DNA of 42,828 nucleotides from an uncultured Staphylococcaceae bacterium (lineage in GTDB: Bacteria > Bacillota_I > Bacilli_A > RFN20 > CAG-826): positions 1 through 42,828 of the forward strand of contig CAZDPH010000002.1 of NCBI GenBank assembly GCA_964507285.1, written 5' to 3'. The position numbers and the translations under genes were made by a program. How positions within the stretch are numbered: position 1 is the stretch's first letter; each line of letters opens with the position of its first letter. The notes under the pieces were generated by a model, which saw only the letters and a list, made by a program, of their open reading frames with translations, was not told the DNA's origin and searched no databases. This document shows, piece by piece, positions 6,830 to 29,554 of the stretch.

Positions 6830-6842
6830 TTTATTCTCCTTT

Positions 6843-7493: not shown

Positions 7494-8077
7494 AATAATT
7501 CCCCTAAATTATTTTCTTCATATAAATAAATTAAAAATCTAGTTAAAAGTATATTTTTACCATTTTTAAGATTAATTCCACTTAATTCAGAGAATCTACT
7601 AATTCGATAATTTATAGTATTGCGATGAGTAAATAAATATAAGCTTGTATAATGAACAGATTCTTCAAAATCAATATATACTTTAGCAGTTTCAAATATA
7701 TATTTATCAACTTTAGAAAAAACATCTTTAACAAAATCTAAATTAATATCATTATTTTTATATTGTTGAAGTAATAATTCATATAAAGATAAATGACCTG
7801 ATTCATTAGATTTTAATACTAATTTCAAAGAATCTTTATAAAAAGGGGTTTCTACCAATAATAATTGATTTAAATTCAAATCATTCTTAATTGTTTTAAT
7901 AGAAAGACATATTTTTATAAAATCTTCTTTTTCAAGAGAACTTACTTTTATTAATCCGTCTTGAATTTTAGTCAAAGTAAAATCTTTATTAATAATTAAA
8001 AACATATATTTTTTCAATATTTCTAAATTATCGTATGTTTTATCAATTATTAAATAAGATTTTACTAAATTATTCAT
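7490..8077 (-). CDS. Short PucR/CdaR-type HTH protein (unrecognised N-domain plus C-terminal HTH)
   Basis: 195 aa. The C-terminus LFTHRNTINYRISRFSELSGINLKNGKNILLTRFLIY matches the PucR C-terminal HTH signature (H-RNT-x-YR-x4-E-x-G). ATGA overlap with the GntR gene and 8-nt overlap with the GH28 gene. Confidence 0.6.
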   Translation of the reverse strand: MNNLVKSYLIIDKTYDNLEILKKYMFLIINKDFTLTKIQDGLIKVSSLEKEDFIKICLSIKTIKNDLNLNQLLLVETPFYKDSLKLVLKSNESGHLSLYELLLQQYKNNDINLDFVKDVFSKVDKYIFETAKVYIDFEESVHYTSLYLFTHRNTINYRISRFSELSGINLKNGKNILLTRFLIYLYEENNLGELL

Positions 8078-12673: not shown

Positions 12674-13409
12674 CGATAACTACCTCGCTTAAATCCATTG
12701 AAGGATTTTTCTTTTGATATATAAATCTAAAGATACAATAAATAATTGCACCAAGAGAAAGTAAAACAATAATTCCGAATACTACAAATCCTAAAATAAA
12801 TACCCAACTAAATGTATTATAGGAGAAATATTCTTTAATTGCATCAACCCCTAATCCGTTTTGATAACTATAATAAGCATTAATAATATTATATGCAACG
12901 TTATTTTTACAATAATTACTCCATGAAATCAATTGATAAATTCCATATCCAGCAGTACCACATCCAAATAAGCCAGCAGCGCCTAATGTAATGTAATTAG
13001 ATATATAAAATACTTCTCTTTTTTGTGAATGGAATAAAAAACCAATAGCAGTAAGAATAATACCGATTAATCCAAAATTGAATAAAAAGTGATTAAAACC
13101 TTGAAGTTCACCACCAACCCCTGTGGTTTGATTTTGTTTACAGAAATTTACAAAATAAGATAAATTATAACCAACTAATTTGCCACTTCTATAAGCATAT
13201 GCAGCATCTGCGAAATCTGTGCTCCAAACTCCGTATGTTGTTGCATTACTTTTACTAAAAACAGCGTCAGTAATGTAAAAATCATAAAAAGGAGTCATAA
13301 ATATTAAACTATAGACAAATAAAAGTATCATAGAAAAAAAGATGGCAAAAACAATTGGTTTTTGTAATTTAAATATGAGACTTTTATTTGTATTTGGATT
13401 TTCCTTCAT
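12666..13409 (-). CDS. Hypothetical membrane protein (about 4 TM) with aromatic-rich extracytoplasmic loops
   Basis: 247 aa. TM1 IVFAIFFSMILLFVYSLIF, then a Y/W/F-rich roughly 65 aa loop, then three further TM spans. GGAGAG SD. 8-nt overlap with the next ORF. Confidence 0.55.
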   Translation of the reverse strand: MKENPNTNKSLIFKLQKPIVFAIFFSMILLFVYSLIFMTPFYDFYITDAVFSKSNATTYGVWSTDFADAAYAYRSGKLVGYNLSYFVNFCKQNQTTGVGGELQGFNHFLFNFGLIGIILTAIGFLFHSQKREVFYISNYITLGAAGLFGCGTAGYGIYQLISWSNYCKNNVAYNIINAYYSYQNGLGVDAIKEYFSYNTFSWVFILGFVVFGIIVLLSLGAIIYCIFRFIYQKKNPSMDLSEVVIDE

Positions 13410-13468: not shown

Positions 13469-15661
13469 TTATTTCATTAAATCGTAAGCATCATTATAAA
13501 TAGTAACTGCTTTCTTTAAATTTAATGTTTCGTTGATATATGTTAAATATCCTGATTTAGTATATAAGACTTCACCAGTTGATGTTGTTCCACCAAATCC
13601 ATACATAACATATTTATTCCAAATATTATAATTTGAAGTAGATGAATTTGTATGAATATTTCCTAAACCAGCACTTTCTAATGTAGAAAGTTGTGTTGAT
13701 TCACCAGCAGATAAATTAAATGAGCTTGGTGTAATAGTGTAGAATCCATTGTCTGTGAAATCTAATTCAACATGTTTAAATGTTCCAACTTCTAATGCAT
13801 GAGCAACAATGTTACAACCATTAACTGCATTAGCATTTGTACATTGTACTTCAACACCATAATTCTTAACAGATCCAATATTTAAACCTGCACCAACATA
13901 TTTTCTGAAATAGTTAGTATAGTTATCTTTACCGATTGTTGTATCATGGAATTGAGCTAATGTTTCTTCTGATAATTGTGGGACACCATTAACAATTTCT
14001 GTATAATATCCTTCGCTTACTGGACCTGCTGTATATAAAGCTTGTCCTTCTTCAGAATAGAAGAAATCAAATAATTTTAATGCCTTAGCTAATTTAGCTT
14101 CATCTTTAACAATACTTGCATTAATACACCAGCCTTCTGTTTTAACACTTCTCCAGCTTTCTGTGAATTGCATCCACTTTGTTTTATATGTTCCAGTTTT
14201 TTCATCATATGATTCTTTCCATTCAGCAACAGCATTGATAATTGGTCTAAAATCATAACCTTCAACTGCTTTTGACCCAGCTTTATCATTCCAAGCACCT
14301 TGAGATTGAGAATAATCATATTCCATAAATCCACAATATGTTTTTCCTTCAACTGTAGCACCATTACCATTGAAAATTGCACTTGCGAATTTACCATCAG
14401 TAGCACCATTACTTGCTTTTGTTTCGAAATCTTTAGCAATCAAGCCTTCATCGTATAATTCATTTAAATATTCAAGTAATTCAGTTACATCTTCTTCACC
14501 TCTAGCATCATGAATCTTACCATCAGCACCAACATATAAGTAACCTTTTCTTGATTCTAATCCTTTAATGCCCCACATTTGAGCGCCCCATCTATAAAGA
14601 TCAGAAATTCTTGAGTTATTGTATTCTCTAGGAACAAATGCAATCATGTTTGTCTCTGCATTTCCTGTTAATGCTTTTGGTGAAGCTTTAACAATTCTCA
14701 TTAAAGCAATCATTTCATCTGCATCATAAGAAGCATCAACACCTAAGAATAAATCAGATTTAGTAGCATATTGTGATCCATATCTATCACTAATATATTG
14801 TCTAAATTGAGCAACTAATGATTTAGCATCTGCTTTTCCAGCATCAATTAATTCATTTTGTAATTCAATAATGTTTTTATCTGTTGATTTCTTTGTAATA
14901 GTTTTTGTACCATCACTTTCCATTGATTCAGGAACAGAAACTTCATAATTTGTTTTACCCATTCCTTTGTAACTTGATTTAGTAACAAGACCAGTATTTG
15001 TATCCCAATCAACATTTTCTTCATCTAAGATTTTTCTAACAAAATCAGCTCTTACTAAAGTATATTTTTCAACATCATCAAAGCCATCAAAATATGGAGC
15101 ATAATAAATTGCACTCTTACTTGTATCTTTATAAGATGTTGATTCGATAGAAACTTTAACAATTGGATTTGCTTCCAAGAATGCTTTGAAATTTGGAAGA
15201 TAATCCATATATTCATTTAAATCTAAAATTGTTCCTGAAGATGTTCCATATGATGAAATATCTGTAACGTTACCAACAGCAATATCAGCAAATTGATTTG
15301 TTAACCAGTTATTTTTGAAATAATCAGTTGCTTTTCCACTTGAATCAGTAACATCATTAATTGTGAAATCTAATTGATCAGAAACAGCTTTCCAAACAGG
15401 TTTTAAATCACCTTGTTTAATTTTTGTTCCAGCTGGAGTTGAGTAGTCAACACTTTCATTAAAAGTTAAACCAGTTGATTTATCATAATTAACTGACATT
15501 GAAAGTGTACAATGTTCATCTGGTAATGGATCAACAGGATCGACTGGATCAACAGGATCGACTGGATCAACAGGATCTACAGTTGAACCTCCTCCACATG
15601 CAGTTAGTACTAAGCCTAATAATCCTGCGCTTAATACACTTAAAAATCTTTTATTTTTCAT
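13469..15661 (-). CDS. Lipoprotein, extracellular solute-binding protein of the LplA/YtcQ-type (CUT1) family, unusually long
   Basis: 730 aa. Signal peptide plus lipobox LVLTAC-GGG, a (DPV)6 linker, then an SBP-like body. Sits directly downstream of the two permease genes. Confidence 0.8.
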   Translation of the reverse strand: MKNKRFLSVLSAGLLGLVLTACGGGSTVDPVDPVDPVDPVDPVDPLPDEHCTLSMSVNYDKSTGLTFNESVDYSTPAGTKIKQGDLKPVWKAVSDQLDFTINDVTDSSGKATDYFKNNWLTNQFADIAVGNVTDISSYGTSSGTILDLNEYMDYLPNFKAFLEANPIVKVSIESTSYKDTSKSAIYYAPYFDGFDDVEKYTLVRADFVRKILDEENVDWDTNTGLVTKSSYKGMGKTNYEVSVPESMESDGTKTITKKSTDKNIIELQNELIDAGKADAKSLVAQFRQYISDRYGSQYATKSDLFLGVDASYDADEMIALMRIVKASPKALTGNAETNMIAFVPREYNNSRISDLYRWGAQMWGIKGLESRKGYLYVGADGKIHDARGEEDVTELLEYLNELYDEGLIAKDFETKASNGATDGKFASAIFNGNGATVEGKTYCGFMEYDYSQSQGAWNDKAGSKAVEGYDFRPIINAVAEWKESYDEKTGTYKTKWMQFTESWRSVKTEGWCINASIVKDEAKLAKALKLFDFFYSEEGQALYTAGPVSEGYYTEIVNGVPQLSEETLAQFHDTTIGKDNYTNYFRKYVGAGLNIGSVKNYGVEVQCTNANAVNGCNIVAHALEVGTFKHVELDFTDNGFYTITPSSFNLSAGESTQLSTLESAGLGNIHTNSSTSNYNIWNKYVMYGFGGTTSTGEVLYTKSGYLTYINETLNLKKAVTIYNDAYDLMK
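15528..15581 (-). repeat. Tandem 9-bp repeat x6 (GGATCRACW; also readable as 18-bp x3) encoding the (DPV)6 linker
   Basis: ggatcaaca ggatcgact ggatcaaca ggatcgact ggatcaaca ggatctaca read directly from the sequence. In frame within the SBP lipoprotein gene just after the lipobox Cys. Confidence 0.95.
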
Positions 15662-15727: not shown

Positions 15728-16612
15728 CTATTCCTTAACGCCACCTAAATTAACACCAGCAGCAAAATATTTTTGAATAAATGGATAAATAATAATGATA
15801 GGTATAATTGCAGCAACAATCATACAATAAAATAACGATGTCATTGAGAAATTACCAAAATCTGGACGTGAATCTAATGAGTTCATTTGATCTAAGAAGT
15901 TTTTAATATAGACTTGTAAAGGTTGTTGTAATTCATCAGAGACAACTTGAGCTGCCCAGAAATAACCATTCCATCTAGAAATACCATAGAATAAACCAAC
16001 AGTAGCAATAGTAGCTTTACTCATAGGAATATAAACTTTATTACAAATTTGAGTTTCAGTAGCTCCATCAACAATAGCAGCTTCTTCAACTTCCTTAGGA
16101 ACACCTGCAAAACCATTTCTTAAAAGAATAACATTGTAAGCATTTAACCCCATTGCAATAACAACTAACCATTTATCATCAATAATTCCTATTGCGTGGA
16201 AAATATCTTTAGTATTATCATAGTTTAATTTTGTAGCAAATAAACCTGCCGAGAACCACATTGTGAATACAAGTAAGAAATTTAATACTCTATTAAATGG
16301 CATTCTCTTTTTACTTAATGCATAACCACCATAAATAGAAACAACCATTGCGAATATTGTACCTAAAGCAGTCAAGAATAATGTATTTGAATAAGAAATC
16401 CAGAATGTTTTTTGTTGGAATGTATAAATAAATGCATCAAATTGGAAAGCATTTGGAAATAAAATTAAACTTCCGGCTTCCATTTGTTCCTTTCCAGCTA
16501 TCGCAGCACAAATTGAATAAACGAAAGGATATAAACAAAATAATGCAAATATAGTTAAGAAGGTATAAGCTAAAATTTTAAATATAATTTCTGATGCGTC
16601 TAAACGTTTCAT
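15728..16612 (-). CDS. ABC sugar transporter permease (LplC/YtcP-like, BPD_transp_1)
   Basis: 294 aa, 6 TM. EAA-loop region EEAAIVDGATETQICNKVYIPMSK. Confidence 0.9.
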   Translation of the reverse strand: MKRLDASEIIFKILAYTFLTIFALFCLYPFVYSICAAIAGKEQMEAGSLILFPNAFQFDAFIYTFQQKTFWISYSNTLFLTALGTIFAMVVSIYGGYALSKKRMPFNRVLNFLLVFTMWFSAGLFATKLNYDNTKDIFHAIGIIDDKWLVVIAMGLNAYNVILLRNGFAGVPKEVEEAAIVDGATETQICNKVYIPMSKATIATVGLFYGISRWNGYFWAAQVVSDELQQPLQVYIKNFLDQMNSLDSRPDFGNFSMTSLFYCMIVAAIIPIIIIYPFIQKYFAAGVNLGGVKE

Positions 16613-16630
16613 ATTTTAATTTAACCTCCA

Positions 16631-17647
16631 TTAATATAAAGATGTATCGCTAATCTTACGAGCTATCATATTACTACCAATAACAAGTAACATTGCAATA
16701 ATTGCATTAAATAAATCAGCACTAGCAGCAATAGCTTTTGATAAAACGTTAATTGCGCCATCTGATGTAGCCATACCAGCATTTCTCATGACATAAGTTG
16801 AAACGATATCTGCTGTTTCATAAATACTATTATTATATAAGAGGTAAACTTTTTCATAACCAACAGTAAATAATTTACCAATTTCAAGAATTAACATAAT
16901 AGTTAAAGTTGAACCAATTCCTGGGAATGTAACATATCTAATTTGAGCTAATTTACTTGCTCCATCCATTCTAGCAGCTTCATAGCTTGTAGGAGAAATA
17001 GATAAAATAGCAGCAAAATAAACAATTGAACCATAACCTGCAGCTTCCCAAATACCTGAAACTTGATATACAGCTCTAAAGTATTGAGGATCTTGTAATA
17101 ATTTAGCACCTTCAGGAATTAAGTGAATTGTAGTTAAGAATTGAGTTAAAACACCACCATTATAAGAACTTGTTTGAGGAGCAACTAATAATTGAACAAG
17201 TGTAGTAACAACAACTAATGAGACAAATTTAGGAAGATATGAGAAAATTTGAACAATACTTCTATAAATTTGATTTTTAACTTCACTAAATAATAAAGCT
17301 AAGATAATAGGAAATGGGAATCCAAATAACAATCCATAGAAAGCTAACATAAATGTATTTCTAAATGCTCTCCAGAATAATGGGTCGGTCATAATAGCTT
17401 TAAATCCAGCTAAACCAACGAAATTACTACCCATAATACCTAAACCAGTATCAAAATCTTTAAATGCAACAGTTAAACCATACATTGGTAAATATCTCCA
17501 GAAGATAAATACTAAGACAAGTGGCAAAAGCATTACATATAAACGCCAATCTTTTAAGACACGTTTACCAACAAATTTCCAATAATTTTTTTCGTAATAG
17601 AGTTGGACACGTTTTCTTTCAAATTCAGTTTTATTTTTTTCTTCCAT
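16631..17647 (-). CDS. ABC sugar transporter permease (LplB/YteP-like)
   Basis: EAA loop YEAARMDGASKLAQIRYVTFPGI. Start moved to MEEKNK (ATG 17647) with AAAGGAATAGG upstream. This removes the overlap produced by the 17677 start. Confidence 0.9.
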   Translation of the reverse strand: MEEKNKTEFERKRVQLYYEKNYWKFVGKRVLKDWRLYVMLLPLVLVFIFWRYLPMYGLTVAFKDFDTGLGIMGSNFVGLAGFKAIMTDPLFWRAFRNTFMLAFYGLLFGFPFPIILALLFSEVKNQIYRSIVQIFSYLPKFVSLVVVTTLVQLLVAPQTSSYNGGVLTQFLTTIHLIPEGAKLLQDPQYFRAVYQVSGIWEAAGYGSIVYFAAILSISPTSYEAARMDGASKLAQIRYVTFPGIGSTLTIMLILEIGKLFTVGYEKVYLLYNNSIYETADIVSTYVMRNAGMATSDGAINVLSKAIAASADLFNAIIAMLLVIGSNMIARKISDTSLY

Positions 17648-17651
17648 AAAC

Positions 17652-18416
17652 CTATTCCTTTTTATCTTTATTCTCATTATCTAAATGAGATTTATATAAG
17701 TCATCCAATTCCTTTAACTCTCTTGCAGTTAATTCACCACCATCAAGTAAATTTGAATTATCAATTTGTCCAAATTCTGTGAAGGGTTTGTCACTATTGA
17801 AATTTGGAGATTCTTGATATTCTTTTAAATGACCTAATTTATTTCTTTCTTGAACATATTTAATATATTCTTTGCTTTCAACAATAAGTTGAGATTTTTT
17901 ATTATTAGCAATAAGCAAAATTATAATTGATATTACTAAACTCATACTTTCTAAGACACATTCAACTCTTAAATTATTAATAAATGTATCAAGAAATGTT
18001 GAATAATTGAACAAGCCAAGAATGAAACATCTTGTTAGAATTACAAAACCATATGAAATTATCAAATATGGAACAAAAACATAATTCTTTTTTAGTTTTT
18101 TTCTACCTATTAAGTATTGAAATATCAAAACTGGAATAATTAATGATATTGCTCCACCTATATAGGCAACATATTGAGAAAGTTCTGAAGACTTCCCTGC
18201 AATACATGCTGCAAGAGCTCCTCCTATTCCAACAATTATTCCCATAATTCCATTTCTATAAATACAAATTAAGGATAAAATTACCGAATAAGATAAAAAA
18301 ATTATTCTATACTCACCTAAAACGGTAGTAGTCGCAAAATAATTTAATAATTCAAATATAACAGCTAGGAAAGTAAAAACACATAAATCGAGAAATTTAT
18401 ATTTTCCTAAACTCAT
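17652..18416 (-). CDS. Hypothetical polytopic membrane protein (5-6 TM) with roughly 75 aa acidic cytoplasmic tail; first gene of the importer operon
   Basis: 254 aa. The hydrophobic core is faintly reminiscent of ECF S-components (not demonstrable by eye). The tail is ...ELTARELKELDDLYKSHLDNENKDKKE. Confidence 0.55.
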   Translation of the reverse strand: MSLGKYKFLDLCVFTFLAVIFELLNYFATTTVLGEYRIIFLSYSVILSLICIYRNGIMGIIVGIGGALAACIAGKSSELSQYVAYIGGAISLIIPVLIFQYLIGRKKLKKNYVFVPYLIISYGFVILTRCFILGLFNYSTFLDTFINNLRVECVLESMSLVISIIILLIANNKKSQLIVESKEYIKYVQERNKLGHLKEYQESPNFNSDKPFTEFGQIDNSNLLDGGELTARELKELDDLYKSHLDNENKDKKE

Positions 18417-18544: not shown

Positions 18545-19633
18545 CTATTTCTTATACTTTTCTTCCATTAATTGAATTAAAGAATCATCATCAAAATAGT
18601 TAATTTTCATACAATCTTTTAATTCTTTTAAATTCTTAGAAGCAATACTTTTAGCGTATTTTGTGCCTTCTTTTAAAGATTCATAGACATAAGGAATATT
18701 ATTTTCTAATTCATGACGTTTAATTCTAATAGGTTCTAAAAAATCATTTAACACATTTTCTAAGAAACGTTTGCATTTAACATCTCCTAAACCACCTTTT
18801 CTATAATGAGTTTTTAATTCTTCTAAATTATTATATTCAGGCCAATATTTTTTAAACATTTCGTCATTACAAAAAGCATCTAAATAAGTAAATACAGCGT
18901 TATTTTCAGTAGATCCTGGATCTTCTATTTTTAAATGATTTGGATCTGTAAACATAGACATAACTTTTTTATGAAGTTCTTCTTTTGTATCGCTTAAATA
19001 TATACAATTACCTAAAGATTTTGACATTTTAGCTTTCCCATCAGTACCAGGAAGTCTTCTTGAATTTAAATTATCTGGAATTAATGCTTTAGGTTCAATT
19101 AAATTCCCATTATATATAGAATTAAATTTTCTAACTATCTCACGAGTTTGTTCAATCATTGGAAGTTGATCTTCTCCTACTGGAACAATATTTGCTTTAA
19201 ATGCCGTAATATCTGCAGCTTGAGAAATTGGATAAGTTAAAAACCCAGTAGGAATTGAATCTCCAAATGCTCTTAATTTTAATTCATTTTTAACAGTAGG
19301 ATTTCTTTCTAATGTAGATAATGTTACTAAATTTAAATAATAGAAAGTAAATTCAGTTAATTCAGATACTTCTGATTGAATAAAAATGTGACATTTTTTA
19401 GGATCTAATCCACAAGACATATAATCTAAAGCTACTTCTAAAATATTTTCTCTAATTTTAGAAGGATTATCATAATTATCTGTTAAAGCTTGAGCATCTG
19501 CAATCATAATAAACATATCATCATAATCACCAGTATTTTGAATTTCTACTCTTCTTTTTAAACTTCCTATATAATGACCTATATGTAATTTTCCTGTAGG
19601 TCTATCTCCGGTTAAAATAATTTTCTTTTCCAT
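18545..19633 (-). CDS. trpS: Tryptophan--tRNA ligase
   Basis: 362 aa. HIGH motif GKLHIGHY, KMSKS motif present verbatim, and the TrpRS-typical GEDQ. Confidence 0.95.
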   Translation of the reverse strand: MEKKIILTGDRPTGKLHIGHYIGSLKRRVEIQNTGDYDDMFIMIADAQALTDNYDNPSKIRENILEVALDYMSCGLDPKKCHIFIQSEVSELTEFTFYYLNLVTLSTLERNPTVKNELKLRAFGDSIPTGFLTYPISQAADITAFKANIVPVGEDQLPMIEQTREIVRKFNSIYNGNLIEPKALIPDNLNSRRLPGTDGKAKMSKSLGNCIYLSDTKEELHKKVMSMFTDPNHLKIEDPGSTENNAVFTYLDAFCNDEMFKKYWPEYNNLEELKTHYRKGGLGDVKCKRFLENVLNDFLEPIRIKRHELENNIPYVYESLKEGTKYAKSIASKNLKELKDCMKINYFDDDSLIQLMEEKYKK

Positions 19634-19708: not shown

Positions 19709-19728
19709 AAGTAAGCCTAAGCTTACTT
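19709..19728 (-). terminator. Rho-independent terminator ending the uxaB-fusion/uxaA/TIM-barrel operon
   Basis: Minus strand: aagtaagc-ttag-gcttactt followed by tttttatt. Overlaps the TAA stop of the 279-aa ORF. Confidence 0.65.
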
Positions 19729-20562
19729 TTTATTAATTATTTTTTTAATTAATTCTAATGAAGTAAGAATATCTTCTCCAGTTACTCCTTCAAAAGTTAA
19801 AACAGCATCATTACAATATTTTTTAACATTATCGATAATAAAATTAAAATCAATAATACCTTTTCCTAATCCACATTGTTTTAATGATTCATTTTCAACA
19901 TAAAAATCTTTTAAATGAATAACTTTAATATTATCTTTAAATGTTGATAAGGCTTCAATAAAAATTTCTTTATAATTTTTATAATTACCAATATATAAAA
20001 GATTATATATATCAATTGTAATTTTTAAATTTGGAGAATTAATTTCATCATAACATCTTTTTAATGTTTCAACATTATACATAATATGCCCATATGCTGG
20101 TTCCATTAAAACTGTTTTATTACATTTTTCAGCATACATTACTAAATCTTTAAAGATTTCGATACTTTCCATGTAACCAGTTTCAGTTTGATTTTTAGGA
20201 TTATATGTCCATTTATCATCATTATAAGATCCAGTTTCACTTCCTACATAATCACAATCTAATAAAGAAGCATATTTAAGATGTTCTTTAAAGTATTTAA
20301 TATTGTTTTTAACTAATTCTTTATTTGAGTGAACTGGATTAAAATACGCTCCAAGCATTGAAACTTTTAATCCAGATTCTTTTAAATAAGGTGCTACTTT
20401 TAATGCATTTTCTTTTGAAAATAACATTATTTCATTATTATCATCTAATAATGCTTTTTTAAATACAAGTTGAATATAATCAAATCCTACGTCCTTACAT
20501 TTTTTAAAAATTGTTTTATATGATTCTTTTGCTAAATCATGTAATCTAATTCCAATTTTCAT
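19723..20562 (-). CDS. Sugar phosphate isomerase/epimerase, xylose-isomerase-like TIM barrel (AP_endonuc_2 fold)
   Basis: 279 aa. MKIGIRLHD...GFDYIQL...VSMLGAY...LMEPAYGH...VIHLKD...TFEG resembles the family's beta-strand/metal-ligand pattern. Specific activity cannot be assigned. Confidence 0.65.
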   Translation of the reverse strand: MKIGIRLHDLAKESYKTIFKKCKDVGFDYIQLVFKKALLDDNNEIMLFSKENALKVAPYLKESGLKVSMLGAYFNPVHSNKELVKNNIKYFKEHLKYASLLDCDYVGSETGSYNDDKWTYNPKNQTETGYMESIEIFKDLVMYAEKCNKTVLMEPAYGHIMYNVETLKRCYDEINSPNLKITIDIYNLLYIGNYKNYKEIFIEALSTFKDNIKVIHLKDFYVENESLKQCGLGKGIIDFNFIIDNVKKYCNDAVLTFEGVTGEDILTSLELIKKIINKK

Positions 20563-20564
20563 TT

Positions 20565-22043
20565 TTATAATGTAACTCCATCTTTAAAGATTGAAATTTC
20601 TTCAAATTTATTAATTTCATTTTTAGCTTTCTTTTCTCCATTAATAATAGAGATAACTAAATCTTTAAAATCATTAAATACTTTTTCTTTATCGATTCCA
20701 TCTACAATTTGACCAGCATTAAAATCAATCCAAGAATGTTTTTTAGATGCTAAATCGCTATTTGTAGCAATTTTTAATGTAGGAACAAATGTTCCAAAAG
20801 GAGTACCTCTTCCTGTAGTAAATAAAATTAAATGACATCCAATACATGCTAAATTTGTACATGCCATTAAATCATTACCAGGTCCATTTAATAAATTTAA
20901 TCCTTTTTGAGTTAATTCATCACCTAAATATAAACAATCATTAACTTGACTTGTTCCAGCTTTTTGAACACATCCTAAAGATTTATCTTCTAAAGTTGTA
21001 ATTCCACCAGCTCTATTTCCTGGAGATGGATTTTCATAACAAACTTGATTATGTGCAGCATAATAAGCTTTAAAACCATTAATTAAATGAACAATTTTAT
21101 TAAATGTTTCTTCATCTTTACTTCTTGCCATTAAAATTTGTTCAGCTCCAAACATTTCAGGAACTTCACTTAAAACAGTTGTGCCACCTTGAGAAACCAT
21201 AAAATCACTCATCATACCAACTAATGGATTTGCACTGATTCCACTAAATCCATCAGATCCACCGCATTTTAAGCCGATATTTATAACTGATAAAGGAGCT
21301 TCAACTCGTTTATCATTAATCATATTAAAATATAATTCTTTTAATAATTTTACGCCTTCTTCGATTTCATCCTCAACATCTTGAGCTTTTAAGAATCTAA
21401 CTCTAGATTCATCATATTCTCCAAGAGTCTTTTTAAATTCATCAAGTTGATTATTTTCACAACCTAAAGCAAAAACTAATACACCACCATTATTTGGATG
21501 TTTAACTATTGCTTGTAAAGTTTCAATAGTATTTTTAAAATCATCTCCAAGTTGAGAACATCCAAATGGATGTTTAGTTACAATAACTTCATCAATTTTG
21601 GATGTATCAACTTCTTTTTCAAATCTTGATTTAATTAAATCTCCAATTGAATTAACGCAGCCTACCATTGGAACAATTAATAAATTATTTCTTATTCCAT
21701 ATTTATTAAATTTTCTTTTAAAAACATTAACTTTAATATCGCAAATACGTTTAAAGTTATCTTTAAAATCGCCACTAAACTTATATTCAAGTTCGCCACT
21801 TAAATTAGTTTCGACATTATGTTCATGAACATGTTCACCTTTTTTAATATCTTTAGTAGCTCTTCCAATTGGATAGCCGTATTTAATAATATTTTCTTTT
21901 ATTGAAATATCTTTTAATGCAAATTTATGACCTTGAGTAATATCTTCAAGTAATGTTACTCCATTATATACTTCACCTTTTTTTAAATTAGCTAAAGCAA
22001 CTGCAACATTATCAATATTATTAATAATAAGAGTTTTATTCAT
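20565..22043 (-). CDS. uxaA: Altronate dehydratase
   Basis: 492 aa. N-terminal SAF domain (NVAVALANLKKGE...GHKFALKDI), then a GD_AH_C-type domain (GCVN...GCEN...KCGGSD...GC..FTTGRGTP). Confidence 0.9.
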   Translation of the reverse strand: MNKTLIINNIDNVAVALANLKKGEVYNGVTLLEDITQGHKFALKDISIKENIIKYGYPIGRATKDIKKGEHVHEHNVETNLSGELEYKFSGDFKDNFKRICDIKVNVFKRKFNKYGIRNNLLIVPMVGCVNSIGDLIKSRFEKEVDTSKIDEVIVTKHPFGCSQLGDDFKNTIETLQAIVKHPNNGGVLVFALGCENNQLDEFKKTLGEYDESRVRFLKAQDVEDEIEEGVKLLKELYFNMINDKRVEAPLSVINIGLKCGGSDGFSGISANPLVGMMSDFMVSQGGTTVLSEVPEMFGAEQILMARSKDEETFNKIVHLINGFKAYYAAHNQVCYENPSPGNRAGGITTLEDKSLGCVQKAGTSQVNDCLYLGDELTQKGLNLLNGPGNDLMACTNLACIGCHLILFTTGRGTPFGTFVPTLKIATNSDLASKKHSWIDFNAGQIVDGIDKEKVFNDFKDLVISIINGEKKAKNEINKFEEISIFKDGVTL

Positions 22044-22052
22044 ATTATTAGA

Positions 22053-24593
22053 TTAGGCTCCAAATTTTGAATTTAAAGCTTCTTTCATTCCTTTTTTACA
22101 AATTAAATCGTAATTTGCTAATACTTTATCTTCTAATCCTGCAATTAAAGTTAAATCTTCACCCCAGAATGCTTTGTTAGCTAAGACACTATGTACTAAT
22201 TCTTTTGAAGATAAACCTTTTGAATATAAATCTGCAAAGAATGCTAAATATTCTGGATTATCATTTAATTTAATATCTTCTTCTCCACGTTTTCCACCAT
22301 AGAATTTAATTAAAGCAGCAAGTGAGAATAATGCATGTTCTGGTAATTCATTTTTAATTTCAATATATTTTTTAACAGTTCTTAAAACTCTTTCTTTATA
22401 TTTTGAAATTGAATTTAATGCAATTGACATTAATTCATGTCTTACGAATGGATTTAAATATCTATCAAAGACACTATCAGCAAATGCAACCATATCATCA
22501 TGAGGTAAATCAATTGTAGGAATAACTTCATTATATACGAAATCTCTTGCAAATTTACCAACTACTGGATTATCAATTGATTCTTTAACAGTATCAATGC
22601 CTGCTAAATAGCTTACTGGAACAATTGTAGTATGGCAGCCATTTAAAATAGAAACTTTTCTTTGTTTATATGGTTTAATATCATCAACATAACGAGCATC
22701 AACTCCACTATTTTCACCACATTTATTTACAGGGAAATGTTCTTCAATCCATGGTTCTTTTCTTAAACACCATAAATTAAAGATTTCGCCAACTACTAAG
22801 TTATTATCAACATAGCCTAATTCTCTTGTAATTTTTGCAAAATCATCACGTGGGAAACCAGGAACAATTCTATCAACTAATGTTGAAGTGAAATGACATG
22901 CTTCATTAACCCATGCAATAAAATCTTCACTTAAAGAAGCAGTTTTAGCTAATTCTAAAACACATCTCTTTAATTCATCACCATTATTATCAATTAATTC
23001 ACAAGCAACAAATCCTAAACCTTTTGATCTATCACCTTTAAAATGTTCGTATCTATGTTTTAATAAAGCAACAACTTTTCCAGGGAATGTTTTTGGAGTA
23101 ACATCAAAATTAATATCACTTCTATCTAATGTAATACCTGCTTCTGTTGTATTAGAAACAACAATTTCTAAATCTTCACTTTCAGCATATTTTAAATATT
23201 TTTCCCAATCTCTATATGGATTAATAAAATCATCTAAAACATCAATAACTTGGTGTTCTCTGACTTTTTTACCATCTTTAATACCTTGTAAGAATAATGT
23301 ATATAAGCCATCTTGTTTTGCTAAATCATCAACTCTACCAAAATCAAGAGGTTGAACAACTACAACGTGTCCATCATAGTTTCCACTATCATTCATTTTT
23401 TGAATCATCCAATCAGTGAATGCTCTTAAGAAGTTACCTTCACCAAATTGCATAATTTTAATTTTACTTTCTTTCTTTTCATGAATTTTTTTACTTAACC
23501 CACCAAAGACAATTTCTTCAGTATCAGCGTTAAATAAAATTGTATTTTTATAATCTACCACAAACTTTAATTCCTTATTAACTTCAAATTTTTCAAATGG
23601 GCTACATTTGATAACCATATTTTTAGTACCAAAGTATCCATAAATATTCATTGTATCACCGAGTAATTCATTAACTTCTACAAGCATAGAAGATTCAAAT
23701 GAATTGTTACGTTTTTCAACTCCGAGTTCACAATGTTCAGGTCTAAAACCTAAAACAACTCTTTCTAATTTAGAAGCACTTTCTAATTTAGATTCATCAT
23801 AACCTGCTAAAGAAACTTTAATTCCTTCATCGCTAATAAAATCAGTTCCTTCAACTTTACCATAAATAAAATTCATTTGAGGATCTCCGATGAATCCAGC
23901 AACGAACATATTTCTTGGTTCAAAATATAATTCTTTTGGTGTACCAATTTGTTGAATGTATCCATCTTTCATAACAACGATTCTATCAGCCATAGTCATA
24001 GCTTCAATTTGATCGTGAGTAACATAAATTGTTGTAGAACCAACTTCATTATGAATTCTTCTAATTTCACTACGCATATTGACTCTTTGAATAGCATCCA
24101 AATTACTTAAAGGTTCATCCATTAAGAAAACTCTAGAATTTTGAATTAATGCTCTGCCTAAAGCAACTCTTTGTTGTTGACCACCAGAAAGTTCTTTTGG
24201 TTGTCTTGCTAAATATGTTTCAATACCTAACATTTTAGCAGTATCATTAACTCTTTTTTCAATTTCATCTTCATCAAATCCAGCAATTCTTAATGCGAAC
24301 GCTAAATTATCATAAACAGACATTGTTGGATATAAAGCATAGCTTTGGAAACACATTGAAACGCCTCTTTCACGAGGTGATAATTTATTACATACTTGAT
24401 CATTAATAATTAATTTTCCACCACTAATATCTTCAAGTCCAGCAATCATTCTTAATGTAGTAGATTTACCACATCCAGAAGGACCAACAAGAATTATAAA
24501 TTCCTTATCTTTAATATTTAAATTAAAATCATGAACAGCATGGAAACCGTTATCATAAATTTTATTTAAATTTTCAATATTGATTGTTGACAT
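22053..24593 (-). CDS. uxaB: Fusion protein: complete MsmX/MalK-type ABC ATPase (aa 1-362) plus full-length tagaturonate reductase/altronate oxidoreductase UxaB (aa ~379-846)
   Basis: Single 846-codon ORF. N-terminal part: GPSGCGKST, LSGGQQQRV, FLMDEPLSNLD, YVTHDQ, and a MalK-like regulatory domain ending ..ILFNADTEEIVF. The linker is GGLSKKIHEKKESKIK. C-terminal part: IMQFGEGNFLRAFTDW..SNTTEAGI..CELIDNNGD..STLVDRIVPG..DDIKPYKQRKVSILNGCHT, colinear with E. coli UxaB. AAAGGAG SD upstream of aa 1. Confidence 0.9.
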   Translation of the reverse strand: MSTINIENLNKIYDNGFHAVHDFNLNIKDKEFIILVGPSGCGKSTTLRMIAGLEDISGGKLIINDQVCNKLSPRERGVSMCFQSYALYPTMSVYDNLAFALRIAGFDEDEIEKRVNDTAKMLGIETYLARQPKELSGGQQQRVALGRALIQNSRVFLMDEPLSNLDAIQRVNMRSEIRRIHNEVGSTTIYVTHDQIEAMTMADRIVVMKDGYIQQIGTPKELYFEPRNMFVAGFIGDPQMNFIYGKVEGTDFISDEGIKVSLAGYDESKLESASKLERVVLGFRPEHCELGVEKRNNSFESSMLVEVNELLGDTMNIYGYFGTKNMVIKCSPFEKFEVNKELKFVVDYKNTILFNADTEEIVFGGLSKKIHEKKESKIKIMQFGEGNFLRAFTDWMIQKMNDSGNYDGHVVVVQPLDFGRVDDLAKQDGLYTLFLQGIKDGKKVREHQVIDVLDDFINPYRDWEKYLKYAESEDLEIVVSNTTEAGITLDRSDINFDVTPKTFPGKVVALLKHRYEHFKGDRSKGLGFVACELIDNNGDELKRCVLELAKTASLSEDFIAWVNEACHFTSTLVDRIVPGFPRDDFAKITRELGYVDNNLVVGEIFNLWCLRKEPWIEEHFPVNKCGENSGVDARYVDDIKPYKQRKVSILNGCHTTIVPVSYLAGIDTVKESIDNPVVGKFARDFVYNEVIPTIDLPHDDMVAFADSVFDRYLNPFVRHELMSIALNSISKYKERVLRTVKKYIEIKNELPEHALFSLAALIKFYGGKRGEEDIKLNDNPEYLAFFADLYSKGLSSKELVHSVLANKAFWGEDLTLIAGLEDKVLANYDLICKKGMKEALNSKFGA

Positions 24594-24670
24594 ATTATTC
24601 TCCTTTTTACTCTATTATTATATTTATTTAAAAAAAATAATTCATTAAGATTAAGTTTTTATAATTATTC

Positions 24671-24689
24671 ATTGTGTTTAAAACACAAT
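24671..24689. promoter_or_regulatory. Perfect 9+1+9 palindrome ATTGTGTTT-A-AAACACAAT in a divergent promoter region
   Basis: Verified base by base. It lies 78-96 nt upstream of the uxaB-fusion ATG (minus strand) and 61-79 nt upstream of the MATE-esterase ATG (plus strand). Confidence 0.5.
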
Positions 24690-24712
24690 AAAAATAATAA
24701 AAAATAAATAAT

Positions 24713-24741
24713 TTTACAGTTTAATAAGTATTATTTATAAT
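24713..24741 (+). promoter_or_regulatory. Putative promoter TTTACA-17-TATAAT, ending 8 nt before the MATE-esterase ATG
   Basis: tttaca gtttaataagtattatt tataat acttaggt ATG, read directly. The spacer is exactly 17 nt. Confidence 0.5.
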
Positions 24742-24749
24742 ACTTAGGT

Positions 24750-26966
24750 ATGAATTCAAGCACTATTACAAAAGAAGAGAAAATAAGAAGACAAGTATTA
24801 ACTGGTAACATTCGGAAAGTAATAATTTACATTACTTTACCATTATTTTTATATCAATTTATGAATTCTTTCTTCAATTTATTAGATCAAATAATGGTTG
24901 CTCAAATTGGAGATAGTAGTGTTTCTGCCGTTGCAACAATTTCTCAAATTAAAACTTTAATTTCATCATTAGGCCTTGGAATTGCAGGAGGTGGAGCAAT
25001 TTTAGTATCTAGAAAATATGGAGCAGGCGATATTAAAGAAGCAAGAAAATACGCTAATAATATGTTTACTATGTCATTAATAGTAAATGCAATTTTTATA
25101 ATTTTAATACCTTTTTCTACATTAATATTAAAAATATGCCAAGTACCAGATGATTTATTATCTATTAGCGATGGTTATTTTAAATTACAAATGTTAGAAC
25201 AAATTCTTATTGTTTTTAATAACATTGCAATTGCATTAGAAAAATCAAAAGGTAATACTAAAATTATTTTAATAATGAACATTGTTAATATGGCAGTTAA
25301 ATTATTATTAAATTTATTATTTATTTATGGATTTAAAGTTGATAGTTTAATTTACATTGAACTTGCAAGTATAATTGCTCAACTCTCAATGTCAATAATT
25401 GCAGGCATATTAATGTTTAGAAAATCTAATATTTTTAGAATTACTTTTAAGGAATTAACTTTAAAATGGTCTTATTCTAAAGAAGTAATTAAAATTTCTT
25501 TTCCTTTATTTTTAGGAAAATGTATTATTTCTTTAGGTAAAGTTTCTGTAAATGCAATGTGTGGAGTTTATGGATCTTTTACAGTAGGAGCATTAGGTAT
25601 TTCAAATAATATATGTGGATTAGTTACTAATCCAGGAGCAGCTTTTGAAGATTCTCAATCATCTATTGTTTCTCAAAATCTTGGAAATCATAATATAAAA
25701 AGAACCTTTAAAGTTTTTTTAAGAAGTGTAGTAATTCTTGGAATTTGGGCATTGCTCGGATTTTTAGTTACTAGAGTGTTTTTTGAAGATCAAATTATAT
25801 CTTTATTTTCTACCGAAAATGTTGATCCAGAATTTTTAAATCAAATTAAAAATATTTATCAATATGATTGTTTATCAATTCCTGCTTTAGCAATTAATTC
25901 AGTAATATTAGGTTTACTTTATGGATATGGACAAACCTTTTTAGCTACTATTAATAATCTTTTAAGAATTGCAATTAGAGTATTAACTTTATTTATTTTA
26001 CAAACATTCTTTCCTGAAATTGGTGCAGAAGCTGCAGGTATTTCGATGGGAATTTCAAATATTGCAATTGGATTAATGGCAATTATATTCTTAATAATTT
26101 TCTTTATTAAAGTAAAAACAAAAGGATATAAAGGAATGAAATTGGATGATCCAGAACCATTAATGTTTGAAAAAGATGGAATATTAATTAGTCAAGATTA
26201 CACTAAACTTAATCCTCCTAATAATATTAAAAAAATATTATTAAAAGATTTAAATTCTTCTTTAAAAGGTGAATTAATAATTTCTTCTAATTTTAATAAC
26301 TCTACTCCAATTATAGTTATTTATCCAGGAGGAGGATATAGTCACTTATCTCCTAGAGAAAGTTATCCTATAATGCATAAATTTAATTCTTTAGGATATA
26401 ATACTGCTTTATTTAATTATAGTGTTTATCCTGATCATTATCCTTTAATAGAAAAAGAAAGTGAAGAAGTAATTAAATATTTATCAAAAACATATAAAAG
26501 TATTTATTTAATAGGTTTTAGTGCAGGAGGTCATTTAGTAGGTTTAACTTCTACCAATAAAAATATTAATAACTTAATTAAGGGATCTATATATTGTTAT
26601 CCTGTTATTACATTTAATAAATATACTCATGAAACAAGTAGAAATAACTTCTTAAATAATGAAATTAATGAATTAAATATTAATAATTATTCAATAGAAA
26701 ATAGAATTGATAATTCTACTCCTCCTTCATTTATATGGACTACAATTAATGATAAAGTTGTTCCTTGGATGAACACTTTACTTTATAAATATAATATGGA
26801 TTTATCTTCTAGATATTGTGAAATGATTATATATAGAGATGGAGTTCATGGAAGTGCTTTAGCAGATCTTTCAAGTATTACTGAAGATAATTTAGATTAT
26901 TATAATGAAGACTTGATGTCTTGGGTAATATACGCAGATGAATTTATTAAAAAAAATAGAAAGTAA
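24750..26966 (+). CDS. Fusion protein: MATE-family transporter (aa 1-~455, 12 TM) plus alpha/beta-hydrolase esterase domain (aa ~500-738)
   Basis: The N-terminal half has the MATE/NorM-like layout (LPLFLYQFMNSFFNLLDQIMVAQIGD..; internal repeat FPLFLGKCIISLGK..). The C-terminal half has the oxyanion motif IYPGGGY, nucleophile elbow GFSAGGH, acidic residue in TTINDKVVP, and His in DGVHGSA. Confidence 0.85.
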   Translation: MNSSTITKEEKIRRQVLTGNIRKVIIYITLPLFLYQFMNSFFNLLDQIMVAQIGDSSVSAVATISQIKTLISSLGLGIAGGGAILVSRKYGAGDIKEARKYANNMFTMSLIVNAIFIILIPFSTLILKICQVPDDLLSISDGYFKLQMLEQILIVFNNIAIALEKSKGNTKIILIMNIVNMAVKLLLNLLFIYGFKVDSLIYIELASIIAQLSMSIIAGILMFRKSNIFRITFKELTLKWSYSKEVIKISFPLFLGKCIISLGKVSVNAMCGVYGSFTVGALGISNNICGLVTNPGAAFEDSQSSIVSQNLGNHNIKRTFKVFLRSVVILGIWALLGFLVTRVFFEDQIISLFSTENVDPEFLNQIKNIYQYDCLSIPALAINSVILGLLYGYGQTFLATINNLLRIAIRVLTLFILQTFFPEIGAEAAGISMGISNIAIGLMAIIFLIIFFIKVKTKGYKGMKLDDPEPLMFEKDGILISQDYTKLNPPNNIKKILLKDLNSSLKGELIISSNFNNSTPIIVIYPGGGYSHLSPRESYPIMHKFNSLGYNTALFNYSVYPDHYPLIEKESEEVIKYLSKTYKSIYLIGFSAGGHLVGLTSTNKNINNLIKGSIYCYPVITFNKYTHETSRNNFLNNEINELNINNYSIENRIDNSTPPSFIWTTINDKVVPWMNTLLYKYNMDLSSRYCEMIIYRDGVHGSALADLSSITEDNLDYYNEDLMSWVIYADEFIKKNRK

Positions 26967-26984: not shown

Positions 26985-27533
26985 TTAAATACAATACTTA
27001 TCATTACAAATATATTCAATATCAAAATTATCTTGAAACTTATAAATATAATAATAATCAGTTTTAAAATTATAATTATTCATAAAATCTCTATAAATTT
27101 CATGATATGATTTTACCTCATTTAAAGATAATAATTTATTTTCATAAGCTTCTTTTAAAGTATAAGAATGATTATTAATGAAAACTCTTCCTAATGCTAA
27201 AGATCTTCTTACTTTATAATTAAAATTATACTCTTCTATTTGTTCTTCATATTTATTATCTAAAAATATTTCTTTTTTATCTTTAGTGCCATATTCAAAA
27301 GTTAATACAGGATAAATTCCATTTATTTTATTAAAATAACCAGTTAGAGATATATAATGATTATTTAAATCAGTAACATTAAATTCATCTTTTAAATATA
27401 TTTTTGAATATTCTTTTAATTTTGAAACAGTTAAATCATCAATAATTATTTTATTATTAATATCATTACAACTAGTTAATAATAAAATAGGAATAAATGA
27501 AATAATAATTCTTCTAATTCTTTTTATAATCAT
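26985..27533 (-). CDS. Small lipoprotein, unknown family (paralogue of 27514..28059)
   Basis: 182 aa. Signal peptide plus lipobox ILLLTSC. Shares with its neighbour the blocks I-E-E-Y-N-F-N-Y / I-G-N-Y-E-F-N-W and L-K-E-A-Y-E / L-S-K-A-Y-E at equivalent positions. Confidence 0.6.
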   Translation of the reverse strand: MIIKRIRRIIISFIPILLLTSCNDINNKIIIDDLTVSKLKEYSKIYLKDEFNVTDLNNHYISLTGYFNKINGIYPVLTFEYGTKDKKEIFLDNKYEEQIEEYNFNYKVRRSLALGRVFINNHSYTLKEAYENKLLSLNEVKSYHEIYRDFMNNYNFKTDYYYIYKFQDNFDIEYICNDKYCI

Positions 27534-28059
27534 TGGTTTCTCCTGTCATTCTTATATATAAAGAGTACTCATTTAAATAGTTATCCCATATATTTTTAAT
27601 ATTATTTAATATAGAATCATCTATATAATTACATTCATAAGCTTTACTTAATTTAACACTTATTCCTTCACTTATGTAAACAGGTACTCTTTGATATAAA
27701 ACTTGTGATTCTTTTAAAGACCAATTAAATTCATAATTACCTATTTTTTCTATTAAATCTCCATCTCCGTGACCTTCTAACATTCTATCACCAGTTTCAT
27801 AATCATCTAATAATAATATAAAACTATTATTAGTTAACCCTTTTCCTAAATAATAATAAAAATCTATTGTTCTACTACTAGAGCCAGTTAACATAGACAT
27901 ATAATTTTCAAAACAAAATTTTAAATCTTTATAAGTAAAATCTTTTACTAATATTTTATTATCATCTTCAATATAACTATTATTATTTGAATAATTACTA
28001 CATGAAAAAAGAAATGGTAAACATAATGTTATTAAACTTATTTTTTTAATTTTATTCAT
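27514..28059 (-). CDS. Small lipoprotein, unknown family (paralogue of 26985..27533)
   Basis: 181 aa. Signal peptide plus lipobox FLFSC. 8-nt overlap with the protease gene and 20-nt overlap with the next lipoprotein gene. Confidence 0.6.
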   Translation of the reverse strand: MNKIKKISLITLCLPFLFSCSNYSNNNSYIEDDNKILVKDFTYKDLKFCFENYMSMLTGSSSRTIDFYYYLGKGLTNNSFILLLDDYETGDRMLEGHGDGDLIEKIGNYEFNWSLKESQVLYQRVPVYISEGISVKLSKAYECNYIDDSILNNIKNIWDNYLNEYSLYIRMTGETNDYKKN

Positions 28060-29554
28060 ATTTTAAAGAGTCCTCATAACTTAAATCAACAATATCATTA
28101 ATAACTTGTGTTATTTTTGGATAATATAAACCATTTATAAAATCATATTCTTCTAAATATAACGATCTAGAATTATTTATAAATCCAATTTCAACTTTTC
28201 CTCCACATTTAATACAAATTCCATATCTATTTCCAGATATAATAGTTCCACCTTTTAAGACATGTCCTTCTTCTATCGTATTTTCACAATAATTACATAA
28301 TCCAAGATGCTTAGAAGTACTTAATGTAGAATACGTATATTCATGATTTGATGCATGAATTGAATTAAAGACATTTAATCTATTTCCATCAACACAATAA
28401 TCTTTTAAAGAATCTAGTTTATCTGCATATTTCATTATTTGATTTTTAACTTGAGATGAAGATAAATTTTTATTTTTCGATAACATTAACGCACAAGCCC
28501 CTGTAACAAGTGGTGCTGCAAAACTAGTACCATAACAATCTTGAAATTCATCATTATCATCTATAGAATAAATTCCATAACTTGGAGCAAATATATCAAC
28601 TAAAGAATCACTATAGTTGCTAATTGAACTTTTAGAATCATAAATAGTAGATTCTCCTACTACAATCATATTTTCTAAACTATATTTCGCAGGATAAACA
28701 AAATTAGTATCTAGATTCAAATTATCATTTGCAGCACTACAAATAAATAAACCATCAAAATTTTGAATAGAATTTTTAAAACTTAAAGAATTATCTCCGC
28801 CCATTGAATAAGAACAATTAATTAATTGAATATCAATAGGCAAATTATTAATATAATTCATAGCACTTATAAAATCCCACAACTCACAATCTTTTGGAAT
28901 CATTATGGATATTATATTTATATTTTCACACACGCCAGATTCAAACAATGAATTATTACTAGACCCGCCAATTATATAAGATACAGTGGTTCCATGACTA
29001 CTTCTAAAATTATCATAATCTCTTCCATCGATAAAGCTTTTAGAATAAGTATTATCTAATTTATTTGTCAACAGTGTAGAATTAAAATTAACTCCACTAT
29101 CAATCACAGCAACATTAATAACATCATTATTACCAGGTAATTCTTTTGCACTTTCGGATTCAATTATTTCATAGTTTACCTTTTTTGATAAAATACGTAA
29201 ATTGTTATTTGAAACATTGTTATCAGCTGATTCATCAATCGAGTAAGTTTTATTTTCTTCAACAAATAAAATGTTATCTTCATTATTTAAAATTTGTAAC
29301 GCAATTTCATAATGTATTTGTGATTGAAAATTAATTTTATAATAATTAGATTTCAAATTATTTAACGATTCAACATTATTAAAGCGAATATCCTTAATGT
29401 TTAAATAAGAAAGAAATTCATTCATTCTTATAAAATCTGAATTATTATTTACACAAACAATCATTTCCTTTTCATAGCTTTTATTATTAATACTATTAAA
29501 ATTAGTTAATGAAGAAATTAAAGGAAATAATATAAATATATTAAAAAGTTTCAT
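28052..29554 (-). CDS. Secreted subtilisin-like serine protease (peptidase S8) with C-terminal CxxC..CxxC extension
   Basis: 500 aa. N-terminal signal-like MKLFNIFILFPLISSL. Catalytic triad motifs VAVIDSGV (Asp), SHGTTVS (His), GTSFAAPLVTG (Ser). Tail: CNYC-x23-CIKC. Confidence 0.85.
   Translation of the reverse strand: MKLFNIFILFPLISSLTNFNSINNKSYEKEMIVCVNNNSDFIRMNEFLSYLNIKDIRFNNVESLNNLKSNYYKINFQSQIHYEIALQILNNEDNILFVEENKTYSIDESADNNVSNNNLRILSKKVNYEIIESESAKELPGNNDVINVAVIDSGVNFNSTLLTNKLDNTYSKSFIDGRDYDNFRSSHGTTVSYIIGGSSNNSLFESGVCENINIISIMIPKDCELWDFISAMNYINNLPIDIQLINCSYSMGGDNSLSFKNSIQNFDGLFICSAANDNLNLDTNFVYPAKYSLENMIVVGESTIYDSKSSISNYSDSLVDIFAPSYGIYSIDDNDEFQDCYGTSFAAPLVTGACALMLSKNKNLSSSQVKNQIMKYADKLDSLKDYCVDGNRLNVFNSIHASNHEYTYSTLSTSKHLGLCNYCENTIEEGHVLKGGTIISGNRYGICIKCGGKVEIGFINNSRSLYLEEYDFINGLYYPKITQVINDIVDLSYEDSLKYE

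Follow-up and report, generated by a model that had tools for sequence, protein, structure and literature searches.

A MATE transporter fused to a BD-FAE-type esterase beside the pectin genes of uncultured Bacilli

Why should a bacterium make a membrane transporter and a soluble hydrolase as one polypeptide? The question is raised by a stretch of 42,828 nucleotides from an uncultured Staphylococcaceae bacterium (assembly GCA_964507285.1, contig CAZDPH010000002.1, positions 1 to 42,828; below, the window), in which a single gene encodes a MATE-type transporter followed by an esterase of the BD-FAE family. The reading we favour, with a rough probability of 0.6, is a selected fusion in which a cytoplasmic pectic de-esterase is tethered to an exporter. 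The parts of the gene and of its 738-residue product are the following.

24750..26966, plus strand: complete fused gene, MATE transporter joined to BD-FAE esterase, 738 codons and a stop (open reading frame list, Pfam, AlphaFold2, homologues)
24750..26123, plus strand: MATE domain, residues 1-458 (helical part about 20-458), 12 predicted transmembrane helices from H21-51 to H427-458 (model helices, Foldseek, lysine and arginine bias)
26124..26204, plus strand: predicted cytoplasmic C-terminal tail of the MatE subfamily, residues 459-485 (GYKGMKLDDPEPLMFEKDGILISQDY), holding Met463 (26136-26138); corresponds in the alignment to the C-terminal ends of unfused MatE proteins
26205..26234, plus strand: fusion junction, residues 486-495, at the site of the ancestral MatE-stop/esterase-start overlap, of low model confidence, with a length that varies across the three fused clades and with no in-frame start
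26235..26963, plus strand: BD-FAE-type alpha/beta-hydrolase esterase, residues 496-738 (Pfam, PDB sequence matches, fold, triad)
26328-26336, plus strand: oxyanion GGG (G527-G529) within YPGGGY, residues 525-530
26520-26522, plus strand: catalytic Ser591 within GFSAGGH, residues 589-595
26751-26753, plus strand: catalytic Asp668 within NDKVVP, residues 667-672
26847-26849, plus strand: catalytic His700 within GVHGS, residues 698-702

The reading frame starts with ATG and runs through its 738 codons in the raw sequence without a stop or a frame break. In the whole protein, Pfam recognises MatE in two stretches (3.9e-40; 137.6 bits, the gathering score being 24.9) and BD-FAE (PF20434) at residues 512-675 (38.3 bits against 26.8). 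The TIGR00797 model covers residues 1-462 with 139.5 bits, slightly below its cut-off of 147.4. An AlphaFold2 model built from a 144-sequence alignment, with a mean predicted local distance difference test score (pLDDT) of 91.5 and a predicted template modelling score (pTM) of 0.68, consists of 12 long helices (residues 21-458) followed by an alpha/beta domain; among its internal segments only residues 486-490 have a pLDDT below 50. Foldseek places the N-terminal part with the PfMATE-type structures 3wbn, 6hfb and 4mlb (TM-score 0.88 on the target) and the C-terminal part with YeeB (3hxk; TM-score 0.84, root-mean-square deviation 2.5). Other structural neighbours of the esterase are 6a6o, an acetyl-ester/xyloside hydrolase of Caldicellulosiruptor, Cest-2923, MGS-M1 and BTAxe1, and PDB entries matched by sequence include 3hxk (1.6e-29), 6a6o (4.4e-27), 3bjr (lp_1002) and 4bzw (Cest-2923).

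Residue conservation fits these assignments. Pro31, Tyr35 and Asp46 of the first transmembrane helix are invariant in 75 of 75 MatE homologues. Pro31 and Asp46 lie 15 residues apart and are the putative counterparts of Pro26 and Asp41 of PfMATE (cation coupling). Ser591, Asp668, His700 and the GGG oxyanion motif vary little or not at all among 81-83 homologues, and the BD-FAE domain is found in every fused and split orthologue. By sequence, modelled fold and catalytic residues, the protein belongs to both the MATE family and the BD-FAE esterase family. Since the model has 12 transmembrane helices and the inside (even) loops of the MATE part hold 28 lysines and arginines against 3 in the outside (odd) loops, the predicted topology is N-in/C-in, and the C-terminus with the esterase domain is placed in the cytoplasm. 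The unfused orthologous esterases have no signal peptide. The original prediction had described a single 738-codon fusion of a 12-helix MATE domain with a cytoplasm-facing esterase of the acetyl/feruloyl carbohydrate type, and had quoted the motifs YPGGGY, GFSAGGH, NDKVVP and GVHGS; all four motifs are where it placed them, and the domain matches, the PfMATE fold, the fused homologues, the loop charges and the kinship with YeeB, 6a6o, Cest-2923 and BTAxe1 agree with the rest.

A fused reading frame in a metagenome may of course be produced by an error that erased a stop codon or a frameshift between two separate genes. The assembly is of an AT-rich genome with homopolymers, and one contig (run X1) lacks one A at 26949, in the A-run 26943-26950. 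This variant alters only the last five or so residues, and a protein 99% identical to the window protein (P0001) has 739 residues instead of 738. Over 24750-26394 an independent Logan contig from a different run (about 97% identical) departs from the window by 49 substitutions but by no gap, and further Logan contigs are gap-free over 25887-26213 and 26234-26587. Full-length fused homologues form 11 protein clusters (defined at 90% identity; 731-771 residues, 53-99% identity) from dozens of independent assemblies; two of the clusters hold 35 and 39 member sequences from many contigs, and the fused frame is kept across this range with mostly synonymous substitutions. We therefore give an assembly or sequencing error next to no probability. 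The region 26115..26250, where a missed stop or frameshift had been named as the point that would undo the prediction, shows neither in the independent contigs nor in the homologues. In close pairs the ratio of nonsynonymous to synonymous substitution rates lies at 0.03-0.06 in the MatE part and at 0.05-0.18 in the esterase, which indicates purifying selection on both domains; both halves look functional. Judged from these sequences, the fusion is a real, selectively maintained protein and not an assembly artefact.

Where did it come from? The closest unfused MatE homologues (482-510 residues) are 60-67% identical to the window protein in the MatE part. In the five split loci examined (L012, L013, L014, L020, L103) such a gene, matE1, is followed by one for a BD-FAE esterase of 242-258 residues, which starts 8-35 nucleotides before the matE1 stop or 2 nucleotides downstream of it. 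A second MatE gene, matE2 (about 460 codons), overlaps the esterase stop in the four split loci that reach far enough. In the protein alignment the unfused MatE proteins, with the tail KGYKGMxxxDPEPxMxExxGILVR, end at about window residue 485-492, and the unfused esterases begin at about 488-497. For this reason the segment described in the original prediction as a linker of roughly 45 residues should be divided: residues 459-485 are the conserved MatE tail, and only some ten residues (about 486-495) are left as a junction. The ancestral state was most probably a translationally coupled matE1-esterase-matE2 operon with overlapping stops and starts, in which loss of the matE1 stop and overlap joined the two reading frames. 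A single indel or stop loss would suffice in overlapping genes, so that fusion is mechanistically cheap. The exact fusing mutation could not be reconstructed, the fused and split junctions having diverged too far. We hold this anatomy, and the origin from two formerly separate genes, with high confidence.

A neighbour-joining tree built on the MatE domain splits the fused proteins into three groups, with unfused ones between them.

Fused clade 1: the window protein with P0001-P0006 (bootstrap 196/200)
Fused group 2: P0007, beside the unfused P0016
Fused clade 3: P0008-P0011, sister to the unfused P0045-P0051 (bootstrap 200/200 with those sisters)

Monophyly of all fused proteins is recovered in 0 of 200 bootstrap replicates, and clade 1 together with P0007 in one. 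The junctions differ in length among the three groups. Taken together, the tree and the junctions indicate that fusion occurred independently three times or more among these uncultured low-GC Bacilli, and two further observations agree. A clade-3 locus retains matE2 and separate ATPase and UxaB genes, whereas in clade 1 matE2 is gone from that position and the ATPase is fused to UxaB; and the window esterase domain is 39-43% identical to the other fused esterases, against 45-46% to unfused ones. Within clade 1 divergence reaches down to 66% identity. Two proteins of 682-687 residues (P0058, P0060) were considered as additional C-terminal fusions and rejected, as their extra length is N-terminal.

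The existence of split operons bears out the idea that a once-separate esterase gene lies within the fusion. Its proposed relic start, Met463, does not survive. This ATG at 26136 has AAAGGA 9 nucleotides upstream, which is the argument for an internal initiation that would still yield free esterase. The codon of Met463 and the Lys-Gly codons before it (AAA GGA) belong to the coding sequence of the tail motif KGYKGMxxxDPEP. Its Met is kept in 69 of 74 aligned MatE proteins, among them unfused proteins and proteins whose genes have no esterase gene in the vicinity. The Lys-Gly-Tyr/Phe-Lys-Gly-Met codons recur in split loci and in MatE genes lacking an esterase neighbour, and in an unfused MatE gene a start at this position would give just a peptide of about 30 residues. 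The fused relative L007 has Leu in place of Met463. The former esterase start aligns to about residue 488-497, some 25-35 codons further downstream, where the window gene has no start codon. Between codons 473 and 541 it contains no in-frame ATG, GTG or TTG, so that an internal start could fall only within the MatE tail, and no observation supports a start there. We regard production of free esterase from Met463 as very improbable. The tail motif was also considered as an esterase-docking element and rejected, since MatE homologues of about 46% identity carry it in unrelated contexts without an esterase.

The architecture is rare and unannotated, while both component families are ordinary. A junction-spanning query (residues 380-640) was compared with 1.84 billion representative proteins, a search blind to MATE fusions with unrelated hydrolases, and P0008 was the sole representative matching on both sides of the junction. 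To the question whether this is a common, already annotated family, the answer is therefore no. The long matches P0303, P0333, P0340 and P0275 were rejected as MATE fusions; they are tandem esterases or esterase-GDSL proteins. Annotations of the fused homologues in the protein sources give the architecture no name. No characterised MATE protein is known to carry a fused catalytic domain. The full-text literature searched on MATE with esterase, BD-FAE, pectin or fusion describes no MATE-esterase fusion, the founding paper of BD-FAE alone being relevant.

The surroundings of the gene point to its pathway. The pectin locus takes up the left half of the window (612-24593); its features, with the adjoining intergenic region, are:

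612-1637: KdgK
1630-2253: 2-keto-3-deoxy-6-phosphogluconate (KDPG) aldolase
2738-3637: CE8 pectinesterase
3665-4333: GDSL esterase
4333-5745: UxaC
5747-6901: GH88/105
6843-7493: GntR/FCD regulator
7490-8077: PucR-type helix-turn-helix protein
8070-9593: GH28
10764-11843: second, standalone MalK-like ATPase
13469-15661, minus strand: 730-residue lipoprotein, lipobox LTAC followed by a run of PVD repeats
15728-17677: two ATP-binding cassette (ABC) permeases
18545-19633, minus strand: class-Ib (Trp/Tyr) tRNA-synthetase-family gene
19723-20562, minus strand: xylose-isomerase-like TIM-barrel (AP_endonuc_2) gene
20565-22043: UxaA
22053-24593, minus strand: ATPase::UxaB fusion (Pfam, NCBIfam)
24594..24749: divergent intergenic region of 156 nucleotides, holding the perfect palindrome TTGTGTTTAAAACACAA at 24672-24688

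From this gene content we suggest, with moderate confidence, that the window encodes a complete cytoplasmic pathway for pectin oligosaccharides with a lipoprotein-dependent ABC importer. None of the enzymes of the pectin locus, including the CE8, GDSL, GH88/105 and GH28 proteins, has a signal peptide, and thus esterified oligomers would be imported and broken down wholly in the cytoplasm. The lipoprotein has no Pfam or NCBIfam match, and the same is true of proteins of 254, 275 and 247 residues, membrane-bound or of unclear type (among them those at 17652-18416 and 11846-13409, both on the minus strand). These proteins are kept with the ABC permeases in related loci (L016 has equivalents of 723 and 247 residues) and probably supply the importer with its substrate-binding and accessory components. 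In related loci the AP_endonuc_2 gene is invariably found behind uxaA, despite a canonical UxaC at 4333-5745; its product may serve the pathway by epimerising or isomerising a sugar acid. In the window, L001, L002 and L011 the uronate/ABC operon includes the tRNA-synthetase-family gene, which L003-L007 lack at this position.

Linkage to this pathway is conserved. Uronate/pectin genes accompany the MatE gene in all 15 clade loci with readable flanks. In 13 of these, both fused and split, a MalK-type ABC ATPase gene with uxaB and uxaA behind it is transcribed away from the operon. L016 has ABC permease genes opposite instead, and L021, the other exception, has no esterase. P0042 of L021 (290-5775), an unfused MatE that branches deep in this clade, lies beside KduI, a KduD-like short-chain dehydrogenase/reductase, KdgK and KDPG aldolase, with no esterase, which argues that the link between pump and pectin catabolism is independent of the esterase. 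A DNA_alkylation-family gene follows P0042 in the place where the esterase would be. Downstream of the window gene, where relatives have matE2, 26985-29554 (minus strand) holds two paralogous lipoprotein-like reading frames (182 and 181 residues, no family match) and a subtilase (S8). Even L001, at 93% identity, does not share this downstream side. In Clostridium acetobutylicum a more distant homologue of the esterase lies without a MATE gene next to it.

The divergent pairing with the uronate operon across a palindrome, already seen in the original prediction, extends to related loci. ATTGTG(C/T)-N5-(G/A)CACAAT stands at the same place in 11 of 12 of them, fused and split, and is degenerate in L001 and L014. 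L016 has two copies of CTTGTATACAACAA instead. The palindrome occurs once in the window. One site alone lacks significance (23 of 100 shuffles), and what gives it weight is its conservation across loci. It is a probable shared operator of both operons, for which the GntR/FCD protein (6843-7493) and the PucR-type protein (7490-8077) are candidate regulators.

On the other side of the palindrome lies another fusion. In 22053-24593 a MalK/UgpC-type ABC ATPase (residues 1 to about 360) is joined to the tagaturonate reductase UxaB (about 366-842). The two are fused in all clade-1 loci (L001-L007, L011) and separate in L012-L015, L020 and L103 (364-371 and 480-481 residues, genes 2-28 nucleotides apart). 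A genome scan with the 846-residue ATPase::UxaB protein gave no census, because ordinary MalK-type ATPases swamped it.

What would the joined protein do? Because the locus encodes a pathway for imported pectic oligosaccharides, the esterase would strip acetyl or other acyl/aryl esters from them, alongside the CE8 and GDSL enzymes; a pectin-linked de-esterase role is in our opinion fairly probable. The MATE part, and MatE2 where it is retained, would expel a compound that is released or unmasked, e.g. an organic or aromatic acid, or a residue of no use to the cell. Such product efflux is a tentative suggestion. The tether would hold the enzyme at the cytoplasmic mouth of the pump, although fusion may add nothing beyond a fixed 1:1 stoichiometry and membrane localisation. 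Operon conservation and recurrent fusion support co-function and not the chemistry, and coupled hydrolysis and export is a reasonable hypothesis. In its strongest form, MATE and esterase would be a true hydrolysis-efflux machine, non-covalent in the split species and covalent here, in which the esterase frees an acyl or aryl acid or an aglycone from imported pectin fragments at the cytoplasmic pump entrance and the pump exports it; we consider this unlikely.

Several observations weigh against the favoured reading of a selected, tethered pectic de-esterase. The majority of relatives are unfused, and the MatE homologues of about 46% identity share the tail motif and yet have no esterase neighbour. 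The esterase scores far below the NCBIfam cut-offs of the characterised PaeX, AxeA1 and lp_1002 families, which thus do not define its substrate. Pectin de-esterification would be expected to yield acetate and methanol, which are not known as MATE substrates and need no pump. With a pTM of 0.68 and a disordered junction, the predicted model supports no fixed interface between the domains. The adjacent ATPase::UxaB fusion has no obvious mechanistic logic, and the MATE fusion may likewise be neutral in this lineage. Four raw-read runs of 2026 with the same sample label (X5, X9-X11) have essentially zero coverage of the junction, and none of the RNA runs searched contains the fusion sequence.

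Neutrality is the most direct competitor. It would mean that the two genes merged through their stop/start overlap in a streamlined genome, the domains working independently, the tether being useless and the adjacency reflecting shared regulation at most. Overlaps of 8-35 nucleotides make such a merger a one-mutation event, and it is consistent with the fused state of the functionally unrelated ABC ATPase and UxaB next door, with relatives that mostly stay unfused and with the lack of rigid packing between the domains in the model. Against this, the split loci place the esterase between two MatE genes, with overlaps on both of its sides, which argues for co-function, and the fusion has at least three independent origins and has persisted down to 66% identity in clade 1 under purifying selection. 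We consider neutrality possible, at clearly less than even odds. A different function would be defence against plant xenobiotics: the esterase would cleave phenolic or aryl esters of the diet and the MATE part would export toxic aromatics, the pectin operon being just a neighbour under common regulation, since plant material in the diet calls for both. Typical MATE substrates include aromatic compounds. The second-best NCBIfam match is the lp_1002 arylesterase family (1.2e-24), and 3bjr (lp_1002) and 4bzw (Cest-2923) among the PDB matches are arylesterases of Lactobacillus plantarum; BD-FAE, the founder of the Pfam family, has feruloyl-esterase activity (PMC8165983). The score is, however, far under the lp_1002 cut-off (87 against 300 bits), and the tight linkage in all 15 readable clade loci is specifically to uronate/pectin genes. 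The xenobiotic explanation is improbable, more so than neutrality.

If the fusion is neutral, it is an annotation curiosity of an uncultured gut lineage. The case also illustrates how transporter-enzyme chimeras arise again and again from overlapping genes in streamlined genomes. For most bacterial MATE pumps no native substrate is known, since the pumps have mostly been studied as drug exporters. The fusion can be read as a 'Rosetta stone' that ties one MATE subfamily to one enzyme class and one pathway, because it is recurrent and because the matE1-esterase-matE2 operon is conserved beside pectin genes. If a hydrolysis-efflux machine does exist, it would give bacterial MATE pumps a class of physiological substrates other than drugs. 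Combined with the ATPase::UxaB fusion, such a machine would suggest that gut Bacilli with small genomes are under selection to assemble catabolic enzymes on transporters (membrane 'transport metabolons').

Among known systems, the esterase has its relatives in the BD-FAE family, whose founding member alone is known as an acetyl and/or feruloyl esterase acting on carbohydrates (Hameleers et al. 2021, PMC8165983). With the solved relatives (3hxk, 6a6o, 4bzw and BTAxe1, 7dwc) it shares the alpha/beta fold, the Ser-Asp-His triad, the GGG motif, a size of about 250 residues and an occurrence in plant-polysaccharide loci. It differs in being only 20-29% identical to them, linked to pectin and not to xylan, predicted to be cytoplasmic and covalently joined to a transporter, and its activity is a predicted one. 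PaeX, the Dickeya pectin acetylesterase acting on oligogalacturonides, shares the superfamily and the pectin-locus setting and is a plausible functional analogue. It is not an orthologue, as the PaeX model NF041902 scores 36.5 bits against a cut-off of 550 and aligns to the C-terminal half alone. Literature searched on PaeX added nothing of use here. Neither are the acetylxylan esterase AxeA1 (NF042968, 88.2 against 700 bits) and the lp_1002 arylesterase (NF052620, 87.1 against 300 bits).

The transporter part resembles the DinF/PfMATE-type proteins (3wbn, 6hfb, 4mlb; PF01554) in its 12-helix fold, the two MatE repeats and the predicted N-in/C-in topology, and putatively in the invariant Pro and Asp of the first helix. 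Unlike them, the fusion has a C-terminal extension of 280 residues with an enzyme, and it belongs to a Bacilli subfamily with the KGYKGMxxxDPEP tail in a pectin locus and not in a drug-resistance context. Transporter-enzyme fusions are found in other families: in peptidase-containing ABC exporters a C39 domain processes the cargo before export, and SulP transporters occur fused to carbonic anhydrase. By analogy only, the MATE-esterase protein would share with these systems a soluble hydrolytic or metabolic domain on the cytoplasmic side of the transporter, an arrangement suggestive of chemistry coupled to transport, the protein families themselves being unrelated.

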